A DNA stretch of 64,000 bases from an uncultured Clostridia bacterium. GTDB lineage: Bacteria > Bacillota > Clostridia > TANB77 > CAG-508. The stretch spans positions 4,417 through 68,416 of the forward strand of contig CAKPAW010000002.1 of NCBI GenBank assembly GCA_934133165.1, written 5' to 3'. This document shows positions 15,011 through 23,435 of this stretch, one piece after another (the stretch's first letter is position 1; each line of letters starts with the position of its first letter). Under the pieces are notes generated by a model, which saw only the letters and a program-made list of their open reading frames with translations, did no database searches and was not told where the DNA came from. Made by a program: the position numbers and the translations under genes.

Positions 15011-15733
15011 ATGGCATTAATAAAATGTCCAGAATGTAACAATCAAATAAGTGACCAAGCAGATAGTTGCCCTAAATGTGGTTATGAATTAAAAAAGAAA
15101 GCAAAAGAGCCAGAGAACAAAGAAGAAAGTAAATCATTTATAAAAAAGGGTAATTTAAAATATTTAATAATAGTATTAGTAATAGCAGTAGGAGCATTTT
15201 TATTTTTCCAACAACCTAATAATAATACAGGAACGGGTACTGGTACTGGAACAGAACAACCAACTACTCCATCAACAAATACTGGATATTCAGTATATAC
15301 TGATGCTTATCTTGGAATATCTTTTGAAATACCAAGTAACTATAAAGTAACTACAGATAAAGAAGGATACATATATGTAGGTCAAAACATAGATAGCAAA
15401 GGAGCATTAATTCCATATATAATTATTGGTAGATATGATAATTTCAATAATGGAGTACAATTTTTAAACAATTTTACAGACTACATGAGAAAGCAATATA
15501 GTGACCTTAAAATTATAATTGATTTAATTTCTGGAGTTATTGGAAATAGAACAGTATATGGACTTGCGTATAGTTATAATGTAGATAATCATTTAATAAT
15601 AGATAACAGATATGCAGTTGTTATAAATAATAAAGTATATATGGTAGGATCTAAAGAAGAAAATACAAATACAACTGAAATTAATAATGTAGTAGAACAT
15701 ATTTTATCTACTTTAACAGAAAGGGGTGCATAA
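15011..15733 (+). CDS. zinc-ribbon domain membrane protein (N-terminal CPxC...CPKC ribbon, one TM helix, extracytoplasmic domain)
   Basis: 'CPECNNQISDQADSCPKCG', hydrophobic helix 'LIIVLVIAVGAFLFF', then a TGTGTGTGT linker. Confidence 0.55.
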   Translation: MALIKCPECNNQISDQADSCPKCGYELKKKAKEPENKEESKSFIKKGNLKYLIIVLVIAVGAFLFFQQPNNNTGTGTGTGTEQPTTPSTNTGYSVYTDAYLGISFEIPSNYKVTTDKEGYIYVGQNIDSKGALIPYIIIGRYDNFNNGVQFLNNFTDYMRKQYSDLKIIIDLISGVIGNRTVYGLAYSYNVDNHLIIDNRYAVVINNKVYMVGSKEENTNTTEINNVVEHILSTLTERGA

Positions 15734-15734
15734 T

Positions 15735-16925
15735 ATGGCATTAATTAAATGTAGTGAATGTGGAGAAAGTATATCATCAAGTGCTAAAATATGCCCACAT
15801 TGTGGTGTAAAAATTAATTTACAAACATGCCCTGAATGTGGTGCGAAATTAAAAGGTGATGAAACTAATTGCCCTGAATGTGGTTATCCAATTAATAAAA
15901 AGAATGCTACAAATATAATAACTGAAAATTTAGACAAAATAACAGGTGCTAAATCAGAAAGCTATGTAAAATTTAAAGATTTATTTAAAAATACTTTCAA
16001 AAAACATACAGAAGAGGAACTAGATGAAGTATTTGTTTGTGGTTCAGACAAAACAACTCCAAAAGTAGAAGATATAAATCCAAAACAAGCAAGTGCATGG
16101 GTATACTTTAAAATATTATTATTTTTCTTAATTGCATATATTCCAACACGTATAGGATTTATAACTTATGGAAATTCAAACTTTTTACCAATTATGATTA
16201 TGTTAGCAGCATTTGCAGTACCAGTAACAATACTTATATTTTTCTTTGAAATTAACTTGTTTAGAAATATACCATTTTATAAAGTAATAAAATATTTCAT
16301 ATTGGGTGGTTCATTATCATTAATTTTAGCAATTTTATATTTCTCATTACAATACTTTGAGACAAATGCTACAACTCAGACTTTCACGGGAGCTTTGATG
16401 ATTGGGTTAATTGAAGAAGCTGCTAAAGCAGTCATAGTTGCAATTTTCTTATTTAAAAGTAAAAAAAGCCAATATATACTAAATGGTTTATTAGTAGGTG
16501 CAGCAGTTGGAGCAGGATTTGCAGCTTTTGAAACAGCAGGATACATTTTAAGATATGGAATGAGTGGTGGTGTACAAACAATGCTAGAAATTATTAAACT
16601 ACGTGGATTTTTAGCACCAGGTGGACACGTTGCTTGGGCAGCAATTGAAGGAGCAGCATTAATGTATGTTAAGGGTTTTGATAAATTAGATAAAAAACAT
16701 ATAAATGATAAAAGATTTTTATTAATTTGTTTAATACCAGTAGTACTACATGGAATTTGGGATATGCCTATTGAACTTCCATATTATTTAGTACAAATTG
16801 CAATGACTATTATTGCTTGGATTGTAATAATATATTTCATAAATCTAGGATTAAAACAAATTGATGAAGCTAAAAAGTTAGAATTGGCTAAAAAAGTAGA
16901 GGAAGATAAAAATGTTATTTTGTAA
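15735..16925 (+). CDS. PrsW-family intramembrane metalloprotease with two N-terminal zinc ribbons
   Basis: 'CSECG...CPHCG' and 'CPECG...CPECG' ribbons; PrsW motifs 'EEAAK', 'FAAFE', 'GGHVAWAAIEG'; RBS 'aaagggg' placed for the ATG at 15735. Confidence 0.6.
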   Translation: MALIKCSECGESISSSAKICPHCGVKINLQTCPECGAKLKGDETNCPECGYPINKKNATNIITENLDKITGAKSESYVKFKDLFKNTFKKHTEEELDEVFVCGSDKTTPKVEDINPKQASAWVYFKILLFFLIAYIPTRIGFITYGNSNFLPIMIMLAAFAVPVTILIFFFEINLFRNIPFYKVIKYFILGGSLSLILAILYFSLQYFETNATTQTFTGALMIGLIEEAAKAVIVAIFLFKSKKSQYILNGLLVGAAVGAGFAAFETAGYILRYGMSGGVQTMLEIIKLRGFLAPGGHVAWAAIEGAALMYVKGFDKLDKKHINDKRFLLICLIPVVLHGIWDMPIELPYYLVQIAMTIIAWIVIIYFINLGLKQIDEAKKLELAKKVEEDKNVIL

Positions 16926-17008
16926 GATATAAAGGAGTATATAAAAAAAGAGGAGATTTAAAAATCTCCTCTTAGTGATATAATACTAATTAGTTACTAT
17001 GATTGCTG

Positions 17009-17149
17009 TTAATTATCGTCATCGATGCTAAAATTAGAATCACAACCGGGTTCGGTACATTCGATTCCACCGCCATCACCGCTTTCAACAGCAAGTCCGC
17101 CACAATCAGGGCAATCAACCAGTTCAAAATCCTCAGGTCCATTCATCAT
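17009..17149 (-). CDS. small Cys-rich zinc-ribbon-like protein (46 aa, MMNGPEDFELVDCPDCGGLAVESGDGGGIECTEPGCDSNFSIDDDN)
   Basis: not in the ORF track; strong RBS 'aaggagga' 8 nt upstream of the ATG on the minus strand; CxxC...CxxxxC spacing. Confidence 0.5.
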   Translation of the reverse strand: MMNGPEDFELVDCPDCGGLAVESGDGGGIECTEPGCDSNFSIDDDN

Positions 17150-17213
17150 AATGCTTTTCCTCCTTGTTTTAAAAAATTATATCACATCGGTTAATTTAGA
17201 GTATTTAACTCAT

Positions 17214-17276
17214 ACAAAAATTATACTACAATTTCTAAATTATGTCAATATCGAAAAATTGTAGTATAATTTTTGT
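17214..17276. repeat. 21-bp perfect inverted repeat with 21-nt loop (acaaaaattatactacaattt ... aaattgtagtataatttttgt)
   Basis: seen directly; sits between the small Cys-rich gene and the 17509 module. Confidence 0.7.
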
Positions 17277-17508
17277 GAGTGATTTTCTACAACGAAAAAT
17301 TAATCAGCAATAATTCATTTTATATCTTCTTATAAAAAATCGAACGAATTTGTTAATGGAGCGGTTAATCTACAGCTTACGAACTTTAACGCTCTCTTTC
17401 TAAAAATATTATATAGTAATTCCTATATTTTTTCAAGGAAGTATGGGAATTTTTTGTATTTTATAGTATAATAAAATCATCTAAAATCTTTTATGAAAGG
17501 AAAATATT

Positions 17509-17673
17509 ATGGAGTGGTTATTAAATAATTTAGAATGGATTGTAGGTAGTGTTATCACTATACTAGGATTAATATTTGGTGTTTCTTTTGTTATCAAGAA
17601 GAACGTTCAGAAATCCGGTAGGAATTCTACAAATATTCAGATTGGAGAAATTAATTATGACAAAAGAAAGTAA
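17509..17673 (+). CDS. small membrane peptide (54 aa; MEWLLNNLEWIVGSVITILGLIFGVSFVIKKNVQKSGRNSTNIQIGEINYDKRK)
   Basis: RBS 'aaagga' 8 nt upstream; one TM helix; C-terminal motif 'KSGRNSTNIQIGEIN' repeated in the N-terminus of the next gene. Confidence 0.45.
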   Translation: MEWLLNNLEWIVGSVITILGLIFGVSFVIKKNVQKSGRNSTNIQIGEINYDKRK

Positions 17674-18697
17674 AATGAAACAAAAATCTGGAAAAGATTC
17701 TACTAATATTCAAATTCAAGAGTTTAATGCTGGATTATCTTATAAAGATGTAAAAGAATTATGTCTTGATTTAATAACCGACAAATTAGATTCTTATAAA
17801 GAAGAAGCTAGTATTGAGGCTAAAAAAAGAGAAGAAAAATTAAGAACTGATTTTATAGTTGAACTTGAAAAAAACAAAATAGATTTAAATGAGTTTAAAA
17901 ATCCATCAATGCAGTTGTGCTATATAGATGCGCAAAAAGGATATATATCTTATGGTGACGATACATCAGAAAAGATACTTCTTGAATTGTTAAAGGATAG
18001 AATATCAGAATCAGATAAAAGCATTTTGCAAATAAGCTTAAATGAAGCTGTTAAAGTAGCACCTTTGTTAATGAAAAAACATTTAAATACATTGTCATTA
18101 TTATTCTTTATAAAAGAAATGAGCATTATGGGAATTAGAACAAGAGCTGAACTAATTGATTTCATTAAAGACGTTGTATTAAAATTTACAAAAGACTCTT
18201 CACTAACGAAAGTTGACTATGAACATTTAGAATATAATAAATGCATCACAAAAATAGAAATATTTAAAAGTGATATTTTTGAAATAATGAGAAGTAAATA
18301 CAAGTATTATTTTTTAAAAGAAATTTCATATGATGATTTTCAACAAAAATATTCTCAATTAACAAAATACATTGGTTCATTAGCGTTTTTTAATGTTGAT
18401 TCTGATAATATGTTAAGATTTAAGGAAGTTGATTCTTTTTTGTCTTATAACGAATTGGATATAATATCATCAGATGATAGAGAAATGTTTAATAAAATGT
18501 TAAAGGATTTAACTATGTCAGATGAAGAGTTTGAGAGAACTATTTTAGATAATAATGACTTGCTATGTCCATTGTTTTATACCTGGAAAGAGGATTTAAT
18601 GTCAAGTTGTAGTTTAACTACTATAGGTAAAGTACTAGCTATGATTAATATAAAAATCGAATTAAAAATTCCAGTTGATATGAGTATTTGGATATAG
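17657..18697 (+). CDS. hypothetical cytoplasmic protein (346 aa) sharing the N-terminal motif with the upstream peptide
   Basis: RBS 'ggagaa'; 'MTKESKMKQKSGKDSTNIQIQEFN...'; no family recognised; overlaps the small ORF by 17 nt in another frame. Confidence 0.5.
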   Translation: MTKESKMKQKSGKDSTNIQIQEFNAGLSYKDVKELCLDLITDKLDSYKEEASIEAKKREEKLRTDFIVELEKNKIDLNEFKNPSMQLCYIDAQKGYISYGDDTSEKILLELLKDRISESDKSILQISLNEAVKVAPLLMKKHLNTLSLLFFIKEMSIMGIRTRAELIDFIKDVVLKFTKDSSLTKVDYEHLEYNKCITKIEIFKSDIFEIMRSKYKYYFLKEISYDDFQQKYSQLTKYIGSLAFFNVDSDNMLRFKEVDSFLSYNELDIISSDDREMFNKMLKDLTMSDEEFERTILDNNDLLCPLFYTWKEDLMSSCSLTTIGKVLAMINIKIELKIPVDMSIWI

Positions 18698-18723
18698 ATA
18701 ATATAAAGATGGGAGTAATAAGT

Positions 18724-19194
18724 ATGATTGAAAAATTAAAAGAAAAATATGTGTTTTTTGATGTCGATGGAACATTGTCTGAATATAGATATAAAGATAG
18801 ATTATATGGTGGTGGATGTTCTGAACTTGGATGTCAATCGCTTGAAGATTTATTGTTTAATGATTTATTTTATAAGGCTAGACCACTTAAAACAATGCAA
18901 AGAATTATAGAAAATTTGGATAGTAATAAAATATTTATTTTAGGTGCAGTTACAACTAATACTGAAATAGATCAAAAATATAAATGGTTATCTGAACATT
19001 ATCCAAATATAAAAAGAGAAAATGTATTTTTTATATGTTCTACATTATTAAAACCAGAAGTTATAATTGAATATTGTAAACACTATAACATTGATATAAA
19101 ACAAACAGCATTTGTAGATGATAGAATTGATGTTTTAAGAAAAGCGGAAACTTTAGGGATAGATTCTTATCACCCTAGTTCTCTTACAGAATAA
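18724..19194 (+). CDS. HAD-superfamily 5'(3')-deoxyribonucleotidase-like protein (NT5C-like)
   Basis: 'VFFDVDGTL' HAD motif I (DxDGT), C-terminal 'FVDDRIDVL' motif; ~156 aa. Confidence 0.5.
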   Translation: MIEKLKEKYVFFDVDGTLSEYRYKDRLYGGGCSELGCQSLEDLLFNDLFYKARPLKTMQRIIENLDSNKIFILGAVTTNTEIDQKYKWLSEHYPNIKRENVFFICSTLLKPEVIIEYCKHYNIDIKQTAFVDDRIDVLRKAETLGIDSYHPSSLTE

Positions 19195-19209
19195 TAAAGG
19201 ATTAAAAAA

Positions 19210-20418
19210 ATGAAGAGATTATTAAAAATTAGTTTTGATTTATCTTTATTATCTTTTATACCAATAATTTCATGGTTTTTATTAGGTATATTAGTTGATA
19301 AAAATTTAATTAATATTTTTACTTTAACTTATCCAATACAATTTATATATTATATTTTAAAATCAGTATTCTCTACTGGTGCTAATATTTGTAAGGAAAA
19401 AGATAAAAATAAAAATGCTGTAATGTCAGGTATGGTTATGGGAACTATCGTTTCGGTTATTATTTTTTCTATACTTTTAATTAATGTAGATAATTATATA
19501 AATTTTATGAATATGGATATTAATACATATAAAGTATTTACTATATATTCCATATTACAATTGTTTATTTGTTTAGAATTTGCAATGATGTTAAATAAAT
19601 TATATTATGAAGAAAACAATACAATAGCAAATAAATATTCCTTAATATTTAATTTATTAAATTTTGGATTATTAATTGGTACATCTTTAATAACCAAAAA
19701 TCAAATTGCTATAATTACTACAACACTAATTCCATTGGCATTATTTACTTTATACATTTATATAAAAAATAGCAATAAATTTAAATTACAATTAAATGTT
19801 TTAAAATGTATTAAATATGATTCAGTAGAATTGTTTAATAATATTGCGTTTTTCTTGATTTTTTTATTTGGTTTAAGTAATGCTCTAGAATATGGTGAAC
19901 AATTTGCAATTGCGCTTACATTTGTGGCTCTTATAACCGATACGCAATGGGATACTGCTGATGCAATAGTTACTGCAGCAACAATTGATATAAGTAAAAA
20001 CGAATTCAACTATAAATATCATAGGAATAATGCTTATAAATTATTAAGTTTATTATTTATAACTAGTTTAATTATGTTTGTTTGTTTATATGGTTTTTAT
20101 GATTTAAATTTTAAAATTACAATGATTTATTTTGGATTTGAAATTATAAATTTCATAATTTATCCTATATACAGAATTAAAACTTGTTATTTACAGTTAG
20201 AATGGTCTGCATTTAAAACAACATCTAATAAAATATGTGCTTCTATTTTAAGAATGATGATGTCTTTATTAAAAACACCATTTTGTACAGGTATAGGACA
20301 AGTATGCTCATCAATATATCAATTTATTTCTGTAAGCATATTTTTTAAATTAAATTATAATGTAGATAAAACAGGAAAAGTAACATCCAAAAAAATCATT
20401 AGTAAAGACAATGCTTAA
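19210..20418 (+). CDS. polytopic membrane protein (flippase/MOP-like?); last 12 nt plus stop lie inside repeat R1
   Basis: 402 aa, ~10-12 TM segments; ends 'KDNA*' exactly like the ABC transporter at 25299. Confidence 0.4.
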   Translation: MKRLLKISFDLSLLSFIPIISWFLLGILVDKNLINIFTLTYPIQFIYYILKSVFSTGANICKEKDKNKNAVMSGMVMGTIVSVIIFSILLINVDNYINFMNMDINTYKVFTIYSILQLFICLEFAMMLNKLYYEENNTIANKYSLIFNLLNFGLLIGTSLITKNQIAIITTTLIPLALFTLYIYIKNSNKFKLQLNVLKCIKYDSVELFNNIAFFLIFLFGLSNALEYGEQFAIALTFVALITDTQWDTADAIVTAATIDISKNEFNYKYHRNNAYKLLSLLFITSLIMFVCLYGFYDLNFKITMIYFGFEIINFIIYPIYRIKTCYLQLEWSAFKTTSNKICASILRMMMSLLKTPFCTGIGQVCSSIYQFISVSIFFKLNYNVDKTGKVTSKKIISKDNA

Positions 20419-20872
20419 TTGGCATTGTCTTTATCATTTTCAATAGGCATATATTTTTTTATGTACTATTTTGTATCTTTAAATATTCAATTTTATTTCC
20501 AATTGCTCTTTCATCTTCAAAATATCCAAGATAGTGAAATCTATTTTTTACTTTAATTAAGCATTCAATATTTTCTTCTAGTGCTTTGGCAATATTCTCT
20601 ATAATATATTCTTCTTTTTTAGATTTTGATTCTTCTTTAAATTTTGGAATTTTAATCTCATATCCTACAATTAAATTTCTAATATATTCAGATTGTGATA
20701 TGTTTAAGTTGGAAGAATTATTTTTTAAAACAAATTTTTCATCATCACTTAAAAATACATTAACTTTATTATTTCTTATTCTCATAAATTTCAAAGCTCC
20801 TTTTTTAAATATTAAGGGTATGGGAATTCCCATAATAGAATTTGTATGGGAGTACAAATTCAGTGCTGGCTA
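20404..20872. repeat. direct repeat R1 (~470 bp; copy of 25285-25757) carrying a MobC-like gene and palindromes
   Basis: starts with 11-bp-stem hairpin AAAGACAATGC-TTAATTG-GCATTGTCTTT; contains 16-bp palindrome TATGGGAATTCCCATA (20819-20834) and hairpin GAATTTGTA(T/C)GGGAGTACAAATTC (20838-20861). Confidence 0.75.
20459..20785 (-). CDS. MobC-family ribbon-helix-helix protein (mobilisation accessory protein-like), copy 1
   Basis: 'MRIRNNKVNVFLSDDEKFVLK...LNISQSEYIRNLIVG' matches the MobC pattern (vRlt.eE...S.SeylR); true start likely MRIRNN (ORF-track start at 20857 reads through the upstream palindrome). Confidence 0.6.
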   Translation of the reverse strand: MRIRNNKVNVFLSDDEKFVLKNNSSNLNISQSEYIRNLIVGYEIKIPKFKEESKSKKEEYIIENIAKALEENIECLIKVKNRFHYLGYFEDERAIGNKIEYLKIQNST

Positions 20873-20878
20873 TACATA

Positions 20879-20902
20879 ATATGTGAGTATGTACTCACAT
20901 AT
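20879..20902. terminator. perfect palindrome ATATGTGAGTA-TG-TACTCACATAT overlapping the tnpV-like stop
   Basis: 11-bp arms; unique to R1 flank. Confidence 0.5.
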
Positions 20903-21257
20903 TTTCATTATAAATTAACTCTTTTAATATAATTTCTTCTGCTATATTTTTATAATTATTCATAAGTTTTGCCCACTCAATAGGGTTATTATCTTTATTT
21001 TTTTCAGTCAGTTTTTCATCACTTTTTATATAATTATGCATTAGAGTATTTAATAAATCTTCCGAATTTTTACTTACTGAAATAAGATAATTAGTAAGTT
21101 CTTCTTTCATTAAAAGTGAAGTATATAGTGCTTTTTTATACTCCTTTAAATATGCTAGTCTCGTTCTTCCATATTTGTTTATATTTCCTTTTTTAGTTTC
21201 TTTTAAAGTTAAATCTGGTAATAAATAATCTCCATGTTTTGTATAAGTTATTTCCAT
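20895..21257 (-). CDS. TnpV-family transposon protein (as in Tn4451-like elements)
   Basis: 120 aa; 'GDYLLPDLTL...YGRTRLAYLKEYKKALYTSLL...WAKLMNN...AEEIILKELIY' matches the TnpV pattern; directly downstream of the serine recombinase. Confidence 0.55.
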   Translation of the reverse strand: MEITYTKHGDYLLPDLTLKETKKGNINKYGRTRLAYLKEYKKALYTSLLMKEELTNYLISVSKNSEDLLNTLMHNYIKSDEKLTEKNKDNNPIEWAKLMNNYKNIAEEIILKELIYNENM

Positions 21258-21284
21258 AATTAAATCATTCCTTTCTTATTTTTA

Positions 21285-23069
21285 TTAAATATTTATAATT
21301 GTTTTTGGTATTAATAGTAGGTTATCTACTATGTTGTTATCTTCAATATATGGGCAGTTTATAATCCCATCTTGATAAAAATGTTGTTTTATTAGTTCCA
21401 TATATAGAAGTAAATCTGCTTCAGAATATTTATTATCTTCATATTTTTTTGTAGAAAATATAAAGTAATCTTGTTCTATTTTTTCTAATTCTTGTTTATT
21501 AATTTGTTCTTTATATTTAATTCCAATTTCATTATTATTTAGAATTTCATTAAGATAATTTAAATATTCTTTATTGCTTTTTGATATAAATTCATCAGTA
21601 AATTTTATATTTTTAATTTCAATATTGTAATTTTTGTCTCTTGTTATTTCTAAACTTGCTATTAATCTTTGTATTAATTCTTTCTTTGTTTTTCTATTTA
21701 GGCTATCCCATAAAAATGAAAATCCAAGTTTATTTTGAAATAGAATATTATTATCATTTTGATAATCACATTCTAATTTTTTAAGTAATTCTACTGTGTA
21801 ATCTTTAAAGTCATCATCTGGATCTAGTTTGTTTTTCTTTTGATTTAGTTTGTATATTTCTTTTTTAATAACTTCATTTTTATAGTTAATTACTTCAACA
21901 TTTAGAGTAGAACTTAAATATAGATCTACTAACTTTTTCTCTTGTTGTTTTAGTTTTTCAATAGCATTATCTATATCCTTTATTTCTTTTGTTTTGGTAG
22001 AATTACATACAATAATTTCATTATCTGCATCATACATATATCTAGTTAATTCATTTAAAATACGTCCCAGTTTTTGTTCTATTTTATCTGAACTATAATG
22101 AAGTCCTTTGTATTTACAATTACTATTTTTACAAGTTAAGTGATAATATACTTTTTCTTTTTCTGTACCACTATTTTTAAATGAATTAGTAGAAGAAAGT
22201 ATTCCACCACAATCAGGACATTTAACAATTGATGTAAATAAATGAATATGTTCTCCGTAGTTTGCGTGCTTATTTTTCTCTAAATTTGCTCTTGTAACAT
22301 TCCAAGTTTGTTCATCAATTATAGGTTCACAATAGTTATTAACTTTTAAAACATCTTGAGGTTTTCTTTTATATTTACCATATTCAAATATTCCAACATA
22401 AATAGTATTAGTTAGTATTTTATAGACTCGGTCACTTCGCCATTTACCTTGTTTTAAGTATGAATTATTATCTTTCATAATACTTGCTATGTTTCTTGTA
22501 GAGTGTCCTTTTTTACATAGTTCAAATATTTCTTTTACAACTTCTGCTTCAATAGGTTCTACTTCTAAATGACAAGTTTCTTTATTTCTAATATAGCCAT
22601 AAGGTGCTTTGCTAGGATGAATACGTTCTAATGCCATTTCTTCCATAGCACGTTTAGTTCTTGCTCCAATCTCTTTTCTTTCTCTTTGACTAAATACTAA
22701 ATTCATCCCAAAAATCATTTCACCATTAGCAGTAGATACATCATAAGGCTCAAGTATTAATTCAATCTTAATATCGTGTTCTTCGCAGTAATTAAGTAAC
22801 CAAAAACCATCATAATTGTTTCTAGTTAATCTATCTACTTTAATAGCAATTAACTTATCAATTTTCTTGGATTTGATATCTTTAAGTAATCTTTGCATTT
22901 CAGGTCTCATTAAATCTTTTCCAGAATGTCCTGCATCATTGGATACATCTACAATATCATAATCATTCTTTTCACAATATTCTTTAATCATTCTAAGTTG
23001 TGAATCAATAGAATAACCATTATCTCTTTGGTCGTCAGTAGATACTCTTACATAAACACCACATCTCAT
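21285..23069 (-). CDS. large serine recombinase (TnpX/TndX-like site-specific recombinase)
   Basis: 594 aa; N-terminal resolvase catalytic domain 'CGVYVRVSTDDQRDNGYSIDSQ' (nucleophile Ser), recombinase domain, Cys-rich zinc-ribbon region 'CPDCGG...C..C'. Confidence 0.85.
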   Translation of the reverse strand: MRCGVYVRVSTDDQRDNGYSIDSQLRMIKEYCEKNDYDIVDVSNDAGHSGKDLMRPEMQRLLKDIKSKKIDKLIAIKVDRLTRNNYDGFWLLNYCEEHDIKIELILEPYDVSTANGEMIFGMNLVFSQRERKEIGARTKRAMEEMALERIHPSKAPYGYIRNKETCHLEVEPIEAEVVKEIFELCKKGHSTRNIASIMKDNNSYLKQGKWRSDRVYKILTNTIYVGIFEYGKYKRKPQDVLKVNNYCEPIIDEQTWNVTRANLEKNKHANYGEHIHLFTSIVKCPDCGGILSSTNSFKNSGTEKEKVYYHLTCKNSNCKYKGLHYSSDKIEQKLGRILNELTRYMYDADNEIIVCNSTKTKEIKDIDNAIEKLKQQEKKLVDLYLSSTLNVEVINYKNEVIKKEIYKLNQKKNKLDPDDDFKDYTVELLKKLECDYQNDNNILFQNKLGFSFLWDSLNRKTKKELIQRLIASLEITRDKNYNIEIKNIKFTDEFISKSNKEYLNYLNEILNNNEIGIKYKEQINKQELEKIEQDYFIFSTKKYEDNKYSEADLLLYMELIKQHFYQDGIINCPYIEDNNIVDNLLLIPKTIINI

Positions 23070-23156
23070 AGTTTTCCTCCTTTCATTAAATTTCGAGAAA
23101 TATTAAAATACCTCTCATATGTTTCCTCACAAATAGGCAAAATGTATAGTCTAAAA

Positions 23157-23435
23157 TTAAAATTTTTTCAAAAATTGTGTAATTTCTTTAATATTATACT
23201 TTTGATTATGCTCTTTAATATAAAAAGTCTTATTTGATATTTCATTAACTTTGTATTCAAGTATTGTAAGAGTAGTAGGATATGTAATTTGGTATTCAGT
23301 AGGTATTACTACTTGTAGATTGGTGTGCAATATAGTTTTAATCTGTCCTAATATAACCTTATATTTAAAGTTTTTTAAGATGTTGGTTAAATCTTTATTA
23401 GGTTTTAGATTTTCAATTACTTTAAATTCAAGCAT
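23157..23435 (-). CDS. hypothetical protein (92 aa) upstream of the recombinase
   Basis: ORF only; no family recognised. Confidence 0.3.
   Translation of the reverse strand: MLEFKVIENLKPNKDLTNILKNFKYKVILGQIKTILHTNLQVVIPTEYQITYPTTLTILEYKVNEISNKTFYIKEHNQKYNIKEITQFLKKF

Follow-up and report, generated by a model that had tools for sequence, protein, structure and literature searches.

Why should a small membrane peptide end in the very segment with which the protein encoded immediately downstream begins? This question is raised by two overlapping genes in a 64,000-nucleotide (nt) stretch of DNA from an uncultured Clostridia bacterium (contig CAKPAW010000002.1, positions 4,417 to 68,416), hereafter referred to as the window. 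One gene encodes a peptide of 54 amino acids (aa) with a transmembrane (TM) helix, the other a protein of 346 aa, and the C-terminal tail of the former repeats the opening segment of the latter as a motif of about 18 residues (consensus QKSGDNSTNIQAGGDVNI). The original prediction, made from the window alone, had noticed this repetition and proposed a candidate uncharacterised module, possibly for defence, consisting of the peptide, the 346-aa protein and a nucleotidase-like protein of the HAD superfamily encoded further downstream. Comparison with related loci shows that the first two genes form a self-contained, conserved and mobile two-gene cassette (approximately positions 17453-18703). 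The peptide and its partner very probably constitute a functional module coupled by the shared motif, and we consider below whether this coupling may be of the amyloid-signalling type.

Pairing of a membrane peptide with the LPO_1073/Vpar_1526 family

The 346-aa protein was at first thought to have no recognisable family. It matches the NCBIfam model NF045477 (LPO_1073/Vpar_1526 family protein) with an E-value of 3.5e-59 and 200.5 bits against a cut-off of 45, its residues 26-346 covering profile positions 1-257 of 257. In addition, all of its close homologues carry a precomputed match to PF28206 (Vpar_1526), a family added to Pfam after the copy scanned here. Based on these profile matches, the 346-aa protein is assigned as a full-length member of LPO_1073/Vpar_1526, a curated family that is still uncharacterised. 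When 1.84 billion cluster representatives were searched exhaustively with phmmer, 1428 family clusters (50% identity) were retrieved at E<=1e-3 and 730 at E<=1e-10, most of them of about 350 aa and with alignments beginning at query residue ~5. The N-terminal consensus of the family is Q.Q..GD.STN.QA, and the motif is present in 84 of 99 diverse aligned members; the 'KSGxxSTNIQ' string is therefore a family signature and not a quirk of the window locus. The AlphaFold2 (AF2) model of the protein is confident (predicted local distance difference test, pLDDT, 90; predicted template-modelling score 0.85) and mainly alpha-helical, with residues 1-28 in coil. A PHROG family without assigned function, phrog_19542, also matches the protein (E-value of 1e-12). 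Literature searches returned nothing for LPO_1073 and a single mention of Vpar_1526, in a proteomics table; no description of a TM-peptide partner, a shared motif or a function was found for NF045477/PF28206, the family entry covering the protein only. In one Aeromonas hydrophila assembly (L082:4149-5281) the Vpar_1526 gene is split into open reading frames (ORFs) of 216 and 147 aa next to an intact peptide gene, which indicates pseudogenisation of the partner in some strains.

The 54-aa peptide consists of a short N-terminal helix and a TM helix (residues 2-30), a basic linker, the motif and a charged tail. Its AF2 model has a helix at residues 2-30 (pLDDT 92-94) followed by a tail at residues 31-54 (pLDDT 53-61), in agreement with the initial view of the peptide as a TM helix joined to a copy of its neighbour's N-terminal motif. 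To collect related loci, a profile derived from a 17-sequence sub-alignment was run against one genome per species. The 69 loci obtained are spread over Pseudomonadota, Acidobacteriota, Cyanobacteria, Patescibacteria/Gracilibacteria, Actinomycetota (Streptomyces, Bifidobacterium), Bacillota, Bacteroidota, Verrucomicrobiota, Nitrospira, Synergistaceae and a Methanolobus archaeon. The 68 loci analysed comprise the window, two further loci (L007 and L010) and 65 of these 69.

In all 68 loci a TM-peptide ORF of 54-106 aa lies on the same (+) strand directly upstream of the family gene, which it abuts or overlaps, ending between -27 and +25 nt from the point at which the tblastn match to the family protein begins; the upper bound of 106 aa omits one over-extended ORF call of 132 aa (L080), and the longest ORFs are probably over-extended at their N-termini. 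Each of the 68 peptides has one or two TM helices, the C-terminal motif and then a charged tail. Two subtypes can be defined. Subtype A begins with M-D/E-W-L-I-x-N-K-E-W-L-F-S-G-I-G, has one TM helix and carries the motif QKSGDNSTNIQ-A/V/I-GG, while subtype B has a two-helix hairpin (...AWVVSDPGFEPALAV...) and the motif QHQSVSKSSIGVQAGGDVSIG. A profile of 38 subtype-A peptides retrieved 1513 clusters at E<=1e-3. The best 120 of these are all 57-82 aa long and without a Pfam domain, and the few informative names among them read 'hypothetical protein'. Reverse look-ups from Aeromonas and Vibrio peptides led in both cases to an adjoining Vpar_1526 gene. In L007 and L010, at 65-74% identity, a peptide of 54-55 aa and the 17-nt overlap with the partner gene are kept and all other neighbours have changed. 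Pairing with a TM peptide is thus shown to be essentially universal for the LPO_1073/Vpar_1526 family. The 68/68 conservation and the 1513 homologous clusters also rule out that the peptide ORF is an artefact.

The limits of the pair can be read from two blastn comparisons. L088 shares with the window the leader upstream of the peptide gene (17356-17449) and then positions 18693-20432, the leader there lying directly 5' of the HAD gene, so that the difference between the two is a 1.25-kb segment, exactly the pair. L007 shares with the window just positions 17453-18703. The pair (17453-18703) behaves as a 1.25-kb insertion/deletion cassette inside the leader of the HAD operon.

These comparisons bear directly on the proposal that the peptide, the 346-aa protein and the HAD 5'-nucleotidase together form a nucleotide-depleting defence system. 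The genes do lie tightly packed on the same strand, the fourth being followed by the sole terminator, and the block is kept in near-identical copies in three or more contexts. However, when co-occurrence was checked by phmmer and blastn, homologues of the HAD gene and of the 402-aa gene that follows it were found next to the pair in L001-L006 only, which are 99.5% identical to the window DNA, and phmmer detected neither in any of the other 75 loci compared. Conversely, in L088-L094 the HAD gene is always followed by a gene of 402 or 405 aa, without the pair upstream. A word-indexed search found close relatives of the HAD protein in 490 clusters versus 19 for the 346-aa protein. At 65-74% identity the genes downstream of the pair are different ones, namely, a TPM-phosphatase in L007 and, in L010, a 144-aa protein without Pfam match and a DNA-alkylation-repair protein. 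More generally, the flanks of the 68 loci contain 107 Pfam families among 120 upstream ORFs and 99 among 117 downstream ORFs; because no flanking family occurs in more than 3-4 ORFs, there is no conserved third gene. The nucleotidase assignment itself is borderline. The gene follows closely and its product does contain the DxDGT motif (as DVDGT), but its matches to HAD and NT5C models are weak and below threshold, the score against NT5C (PF06941) being 21.7 bits at a Pfam cut-off of 24.8. Some homologues of the HAD protein at 84-87% identity have a precomputed PF06941 match, and the PHROG family of 5'-3' deoxyribonucleotidases matches it weakly (E-value of 9e-4). The 402-aa protein has no match in Pfam, NCBIfam, PADLOC or PHROG. 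Taken together, the searches show the HAD and 402-aa genes to make up a separate two-gene module, an unrelated neighbour of the pair. A three-gene module with the HAD phosphatase is contradicted by the comparison of loci and by the indel, and we give it almost no credence.

Co-variation of the two motif copies

In the window, the two copies of the motif are identical at 12 of 16 residues and at 36 of 48 nucleotides (75%), and 6 of the 12 identical residues are encoded by different codons. A six-frame regular-expression scan found no further copies in the 64 kb. The observation that peptide and neighbour share a motif is thus borne out, and the same arrangement recurs in 68/68 related loci. Local alignment of peptide tails with partner N-termini gave mean scores of 51 (cognate pairs) and 37 (non-cognate pairs), against 22 +/- 4.8 when the peptide tails were shuffled. 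With loci from many phyla and such a difference from shuffled tails, the shared motif is not due to chance.

The two copies are also matched within loci. In an 18-column register, cognate identity is 8.3/18 (46%) versus 6.3/18 for non-cognate pairs, and the difference holds inside each subtype: 8.05 versus 6.95 in subtype A (permutation p<=1e-4) and 8.73 versus 7.84 in subtype B (p<=7e-4). The subtype of the peptide nearly always matches that of the partner (35/4/0/28, Fisher 6e-15). Both the co-variation and the subtype statistics ignore phylogeny, a point to be counted against the mechanism favoured below. Residue quirks are shared within single loci as well, including NYQ in Streptomyces and also in L050/L053, IQS-RDT in L074/L077 and QIV in L071. 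To see at which level the similarity is maintained, we compared codons at 563 same-residue positions from 67 loci: 39% are shared, versus 45% expected from codon usage. As codon sharing does not exceed expectation, there is no DNA-level homogenisation, and it is selection acting at the protein level that maintains the similarity. Recent DNA duplication, gene conversion and a nucleotide repeat are ruled out by the same figures together with the 75% DNA identity in the window. In these alignments the two motif copies are shown to co-evolve at the protein level.

Co-evolution of two tails may reflect their mutual contact or a common reader. Both motif tails are low-pLDDT coil in AF2 monomer models, and such exposed, disordered segments, with an invariant Q and conserved S/T/N that could be recognition or modification sites, might be cleaved or processed by a protease, be modified or act as a targeting tag, both proteins then being substrates of a third party. 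Cleavage or processing had already been raised as an alternative with the original prediction. We regard this reading as improbable. No conserved third gene lies beside the pair, lineage-specific co-variation of the copies is not expected with a common host enzyme, and the tandem motif copies described next fit direct contact better. Direct homotypic contact of the two tails is likely.

Natural fusions link the two proteins further. Fused family members of 390-436 aa join the TM region to the domain. In three of them (P0029, P0092 and P0096) a single motif copy separates the TM region from the domain, and three others (P0161, P0159 and P0069) have a TM region, two tandem motif copies and the domain. 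Such fusions are Rosetta-stone evidence for joint action of the peptide and its partner, and they place the domain at the membrane. The tandem copies recall the two pseudorepeats of HET-s, though some of them may be frameshift errors of metagenome assembly. In two other members (P0101 and P0144) N-terminal extensions of ~125-145 residues replace the TM peptide. These extensions are rich in Cys and His and by eye suggested HNH nucleases, that is, a swap of effector, but they have no Pfam match and the argument is not used here.

The fusions could also be taken to mean that the pair is in effect a single gene, with a programmed frameshift or a recent split yielding one TM-anchored protein and the small peptide having no role of its own. 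In the window, the partner ORF is in a frame other than that of the peptide ORF, overlaps it by 17 nt and is open 5' of its ATG, from 17576, and the relative frame is the same in 58 of 68 loci. On the other hand, the relative frames are distributed 58/7/3, so that 10 loci differ, 3 of them being in-frame but separated by a stop. In many loci the partner frame is open for merely 2-4 codons 5', or the peptide stop lies <=27 nt before the partner. We saw no conserved slippery sequence, and the partner gene owns a ribosome-binding site, GGAGAA, 9 nt before its ATG, placed within the motif codons of the peptide ('IGE'). Many annotated genomes call the peptide as a separate gene of ~60 aa, and the stability of the arrangement across phyla speaks against a recent split. 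Programmed frameshifting is unlikely, and the single-gene explanation as a whole has very little probability.

A possible amyloid-type mechanism

Amyloid signalling from a sensor to an executioner that targets the membrane is known in mammals (RHIM), fungi (HET-S/NWD2), filamentous bacteria (Bell/NLR) and, lately, in E. coli (Bab/Agp). In fungal HET-S/NWD2, in Bell/NLR and in Bab/Agp, the activated sensor nucleates a cross-beta fold, which templates the tail of the effector and leads to membrane damage. By analogy, the small membrane peptide and the cytosolic LPO_1073/Vpar_1526-domain protein would be coupled via the shared Q/N/G-rich motif in their disordered tails, which would bind homotypically by beta-strand stacking in the RHIM/BASS manner. 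The LPO_1073 domain would serve as sensor or regulator and the TM peptide as the membrane-acting executor. Upon a trigger, most plausibly phage infection, the N-terminal motifs of the partner would assemble and template or cluster the peptide tails, and the gathered TM helices would damage the membrane and abort the infection. Contact of the cross-beta/amyloid-signalling type is plausible given the motif, and so is an abortive-infection-like attack on the membrane given the precedents; for the full amyloid-type mechanism of cell death or defence we estimate a probability of roughly 45%.

The composition of the motif speaks for this mechanism. In the 18-mer, as compared with the body of the family proteins, Q (x2.7), N (x1.9), G (x3.5), V (x1.7) and I (x1.3) are over-represented, and K (x0.63), L (x0.14) and P (about 0) are under-represented. 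The core [G/N]-φ-Q-φ-G is found in 54 of the 68 peptides, the strict form G-φ-Q-φ-G occurring in 24 of 68 (subtype-B peptides), and φ-Q-φ is present on the partner side in 53 of 67 proteins.

The experimental precedent is Bab/Agp (BASS11) of E. coli ECOR25, which makes its host resistant to phage T5 by abortive infection in a motif-dependent manner. Its motif forms amyloid, and upon phage infection the larger protein activates the small membrane-targeting one (bioRxiv 10.1101/2024.11.07.622273). N12P and N100P are proline substitutions that were made in this system. In both systems the first gene encodes a small protein with a hydrophobic N-terminal helix and a C-terminal motif of ~20 residues, and the larger protein encoded by the adjacent gene opens with the same motif. 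The systems differ in that the small protein of Bab/Agp has 109 aa and a helical 'Babybell' domain, whereas here it has 54 aa and consists of a TM helix and a tail. The large protein is TPR-GreA/B-C-PIN there and an LPO_1073/Vpar_1526-domain protein here, and the motif sequences are different. Moreover, amyloid was seen by experiment for Bab/Agp, whereas the present pair is known from sequence and models.

A second group of precedents are the Bell/NLR pairs (BASS1-10), in which the effector bears the motif at its C-terminus and the receptor at its N-terminus, their ORFs being adjacent and often overlapping (Dyrka et al., bioRxiv 10.1101/2020.01.06.895854). The effector/receptor motif positions and the gene layout are the same in the present pair, and so is the level of identity between paired motifs (43-56% there, 46% here). 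As in BASS, the motif is rich in Q/N/G/V/I and poor in K/P/L, and 'all-in-one' fused architectures occur in both. The motif length criterion for BASS is ~20-25 residues, and an 18-residue core was measured here. The RHIM-like central φ-Q-φ-G core is shared with BASS3, G-φ-Q-φ-G being the signature common to RHIM, fungal PP and bacterial BASS3 (Dyrka et al., bioRxiv 10.1101/2020.01.06.895854). In contrast to the present pair, which has no NLR and no apparent Bell domain, receptors of those systems are NB-ARC/NACHT NTPases and their effectors carry Bell, TIR or CHAT domains. Their distribution also differs, since they were reported mainly from multicellular Actinobacteria and Cyanobacteria, whereas bacteria with the present pair include unicellular ones and Patescibacteria, and one archaeon has it as well.

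The core tetrad I/V-Q-I/V-G is likewise that of the RHIMs of RIPK1 and RIPK3, which form the hetero-amyloid of the necrosome. The window peptide (NSTNIQIGEINY) is identical to RIPK1 (NSTGIQIGAYNY) at 9 of 14 positions, the RIPK1 sequence having been verified in PDB entries 9hr6 and 8z93; the segments behind this figure are GRNSTNIQIGEINY of the peptide and IYNSTGIQIGAYNY of the RIPK1 RHIM. Elsewhere in the six-frame translation of the window, no 14-mer agrees with the RIPK1 segment at as many as 8 of 14 positions. The domain context of the motif in RIPK1/RIPK3 is wholly unlike that in the pair.

A number of observations weigh against this mechanism. Searches with the motif profile against PDB sequences did not retrieve RIPK1 or RIPK3 at E<=10, the window peptide does not match Pfam RHIM (PF12721) at E<=0.1, and RHIM is not among the 25 Pfam families most matched by the 68 peptides at E<=1. 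Homology to RHIM by profile was accordingly rejected as unsupported; the resemblance is a short-motif similarity spotted after the fact and carrying no statistical support for homology, and membership of the pair in the RHIM or BASS families is not established. On the partner side the final G of the core is usually missing, φ-Q-φ-G being present in just 20 of 67 proteins. Apart from its helical N-terminal part with the TM helix, the peptide has no apparent Bell/HeLo-like domain and no matching Pfam family. Pfam scanning revealed no NLR/STAND NTPase or other known oligomerising sensor domain in the 346-aa protein, its fold has no detectable structural relatives in PDB or BFVD, and no PADLOC model matches it, so a sensor role for this protein is conjecture. 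Many loci have housekeeping neighbours. Finally, the proteomics table mentioned above reports Vpar_1526 in whole-cell, outer-membrane and surface-exposed fractions of unchallenged Veillonella parvula, which constitutive membrane association fits at least as well as an induced switch.

Several of these points also fit another arrangement, which is the main rival. The tails may associate as an ordinary beta-zipper or hairpin of non-amyloid kind, by which the LPO_1073 protein is held permanently on the TM peptide, with no switch and no cell death, the tethered protein doing some other, possibly non-defence, job at the membrane. The V. parvula fractions, the housekeeping neighbours, the frequent lack of the RHIM-type G in the partner and the absence of a statistical RHIM match all agree with such an anchor, and the TM-motif-domain fusions imply that membrane attachment of the domain is evidently the functional state. 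A static anchor nevertheless leaves unexplained the amyloid-motif composition bias and the φ-Q-φ-G core, as well as the retention of one or both motif copies in fusions, where the tether would be redundant. In addition, the cassette-like mobility and the match to a PADLOC candidate point to a role in conflict. We consider permanent tethering possible but less likely than amyloid-type signalling.

The candidate in question is PDC-M43A. The TM-plus-motif part of 34 of the 68 peptides matches its positions 1-48, with a best E-value of 4.9e-10, and the window peptide matches its N-terminus with an E-value of 0.0027 (PADLOC-DB v2.0.0). PDC-M43 is an untested phage-defence candidate found by guilt-by-embedding within known defence systems (bioRxiv 10.1101/2024.01.29.577857), for which we found nothing in the literature beyond family identifiers. 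The PDC-M43A profile has 203 positions and so describes a larger protein than the peptide, and it does not cover the 346-aa partner. Another PADLOC candidate, PDC-S47, gave weak matches to 14 of the 99 aligned family members (E>=1.5e-5). Genes flanking the pair in the 68 loci include PLD-helicase, AbiLi, GajA/PtuA/AriA-like ATPases, MADS components, a CBASS cyclase with a 2TM effector, several restriction-modification enzymes, nSTAND3, Fic, HipA and integrases. In L007 the pair adjoins an AbiTii gene, and in the window it lies in a variable interval beside a serine-recombinase element. This context is suggestive of defence, not a demonstration of it. The defence role envisaged from the outset is plausible in view of the mobile and defence-gene neighbours, the PADLOC candidate match and the precedent of Bab/Agp.

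The AbiTii gene of L007 belongs to an arrangement of its own, right beside the LPO_1073 pair of that locus (L007:2950-3778). The AbiTii-domain protein (222 aa) ends with ...KVTIGDNNDIKNSNIGEENES, and an overlapping ORF of 56 aa starts with MKVEIGNNNKINNSNIGKNN and ends in a TM helix. As in the LPO_1073 pair, a tail motif (KVTIGDNNDIKNSNIG / KVEIGNNNKINNSNIG) is common to a soluble protein, here of Abi type, and a TM peptide from an overlapping ORF. The order is mirrored, the motif being C-terminal on the large protein and N-terminal on the peptide, and both the motif and the domain are different.

If the proposed mechanism is correct, it would provide a function for a large 'hypothetical' family and for a peptide family of 1513 clusters without a Pfam domain or an informative name. 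It would also mean that amyloid-type signalling requires neither an NLR nor a Bell/HeLo domain, and the pair (54 + 346 residues) would be the smallest known system in which to dissect a death signal passed through a 20-residue tail. The pair would then be an effector/sensor gene pair of the amyloid-signalling type that combines a minimal effector with a new sensor domain. A wider reading, which is tentative and rather doubtful, is that the pair represents a very widespread minimal prokaryotic amyloid-signalling cell-death system, its breadth being indicated by the 1428 clusters and by its occurrence in bacteria and at least one archaeon. It would be built from an effector of ~60 residues, made up of a TM helix and a RHIM-like tail, and a non-NLR sensor with an unseen fold. 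RHIM-type φ-Q-φ-G signalling would then be widespread among unicellular prokaryotes and might be ancestral to BASS3, PP and RHIM. Even if no amyloid is involved, a clean interface between two proteins, amenable to testing, emerges from the strict pairing, the co-variation of the tails and the fusions, and comparing the C-terminal with the N-terminal motifs of neighbouring genes can find such pairs outside the NLR world.

Layout of the locus and its surroundings

Features of the locus are listed in Table 1.

Table 1. Features in and around the two-gene cassette (coordinates refer to the window).
Feature	Position	Strand	Description
Conserved leader with hairpin	17355..17449	+	GGAGCGGTTAA...TTAACGCTCTC; left edge of the block shared with other contigs
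Peptide gene	17509..17673	+	54 aa, MEWLLNNLEWIVGSVITILGLIFGVSFVIKKNVQKSGRNSTNIQIGEINYDKRK; ORF with Shine-Dalgarno-like AAAGGAAAA 7 nt 5'
Peptide-side motif copy	17608..17661	+	QKSGRNSTNIQIGEINYD, core IQIG
346-aa protein gene	17657..18697	+	N-terminus MTKESKMKQKSGKDSTNIQIQEFN; LPO_1073/Vpar_1526 family
Partner-side motif copy	17681..17734	+	QKSGKDSTNIQIQEFNAG, within the disordered N-terminal tail
HAD-superfamily phosphatase gene	18724..19194	+	156 aa, FFDVDGTL (DxDGT); neighbour only, outside the pair
402-aa multi-pass membrane protein gene	19210..20418	+	Partner of the HAD gene, not of the pair
Terminator-like hairpin	20402..20434	+	14-bp stem; ends the four-gene transcription unit
3-kb insertion ('mobile module')	20437..23420	-	NikA-like, TnpV, large serine recombinase

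The hairpin after the 402-aa gene is the sole terminator-like site on the + strand between 17509 and 20434. The leader is unique within the window, and by blastn its boundary falls at 17350-17355 in L001-L006 and L010. At 26.8% G+C, the window is highly A+T-rich. No structured RNA was found in 16800-20900 beyond one sub-threshold chance miRNA match, and an origin of the region from a plasmid or phage was set aside after megablast gave no match in plasmid or phage collections.

The 3-kb insertion is absent from L003 and L006, where homology to the window ends at 20436 and resumes at 23421. Its NikA-like and TnpV genes were called by Pfam, and the recombinase via the Resolvase/Recombinase families recorded for its L001/L002 homologue. 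L001 and L002 carry a 77%-identical variant of the 20437-23420 insertion at the same site beside the terminator.

Just upstream of the pair, positions 16948-17248 on the - strand make up a compact transcription unit. It contains a 46-aa zinc-ribbon-like ORF (CxxC...CxxxxC; 17009-17149), in a patch that looks locally G+C-rich by eye. A perfect 12/12 sigma-70 consensus (17248-17220) lies ahead of this ORF and a terminator-like hairpin (16973-16948) behind it. Further upstream, two zinc-ribbon membrane proteins are encoded at 15011-16925, the second being a PrsW-family intramembrane protease (E-value of 2.6e-28). The interval from PrsW to the pair is a variable spot: L006 has 9 kb extra there, with genes for a Y1 transposase, AraC, a nitroreductase, a glycosyltransferase and EamA.

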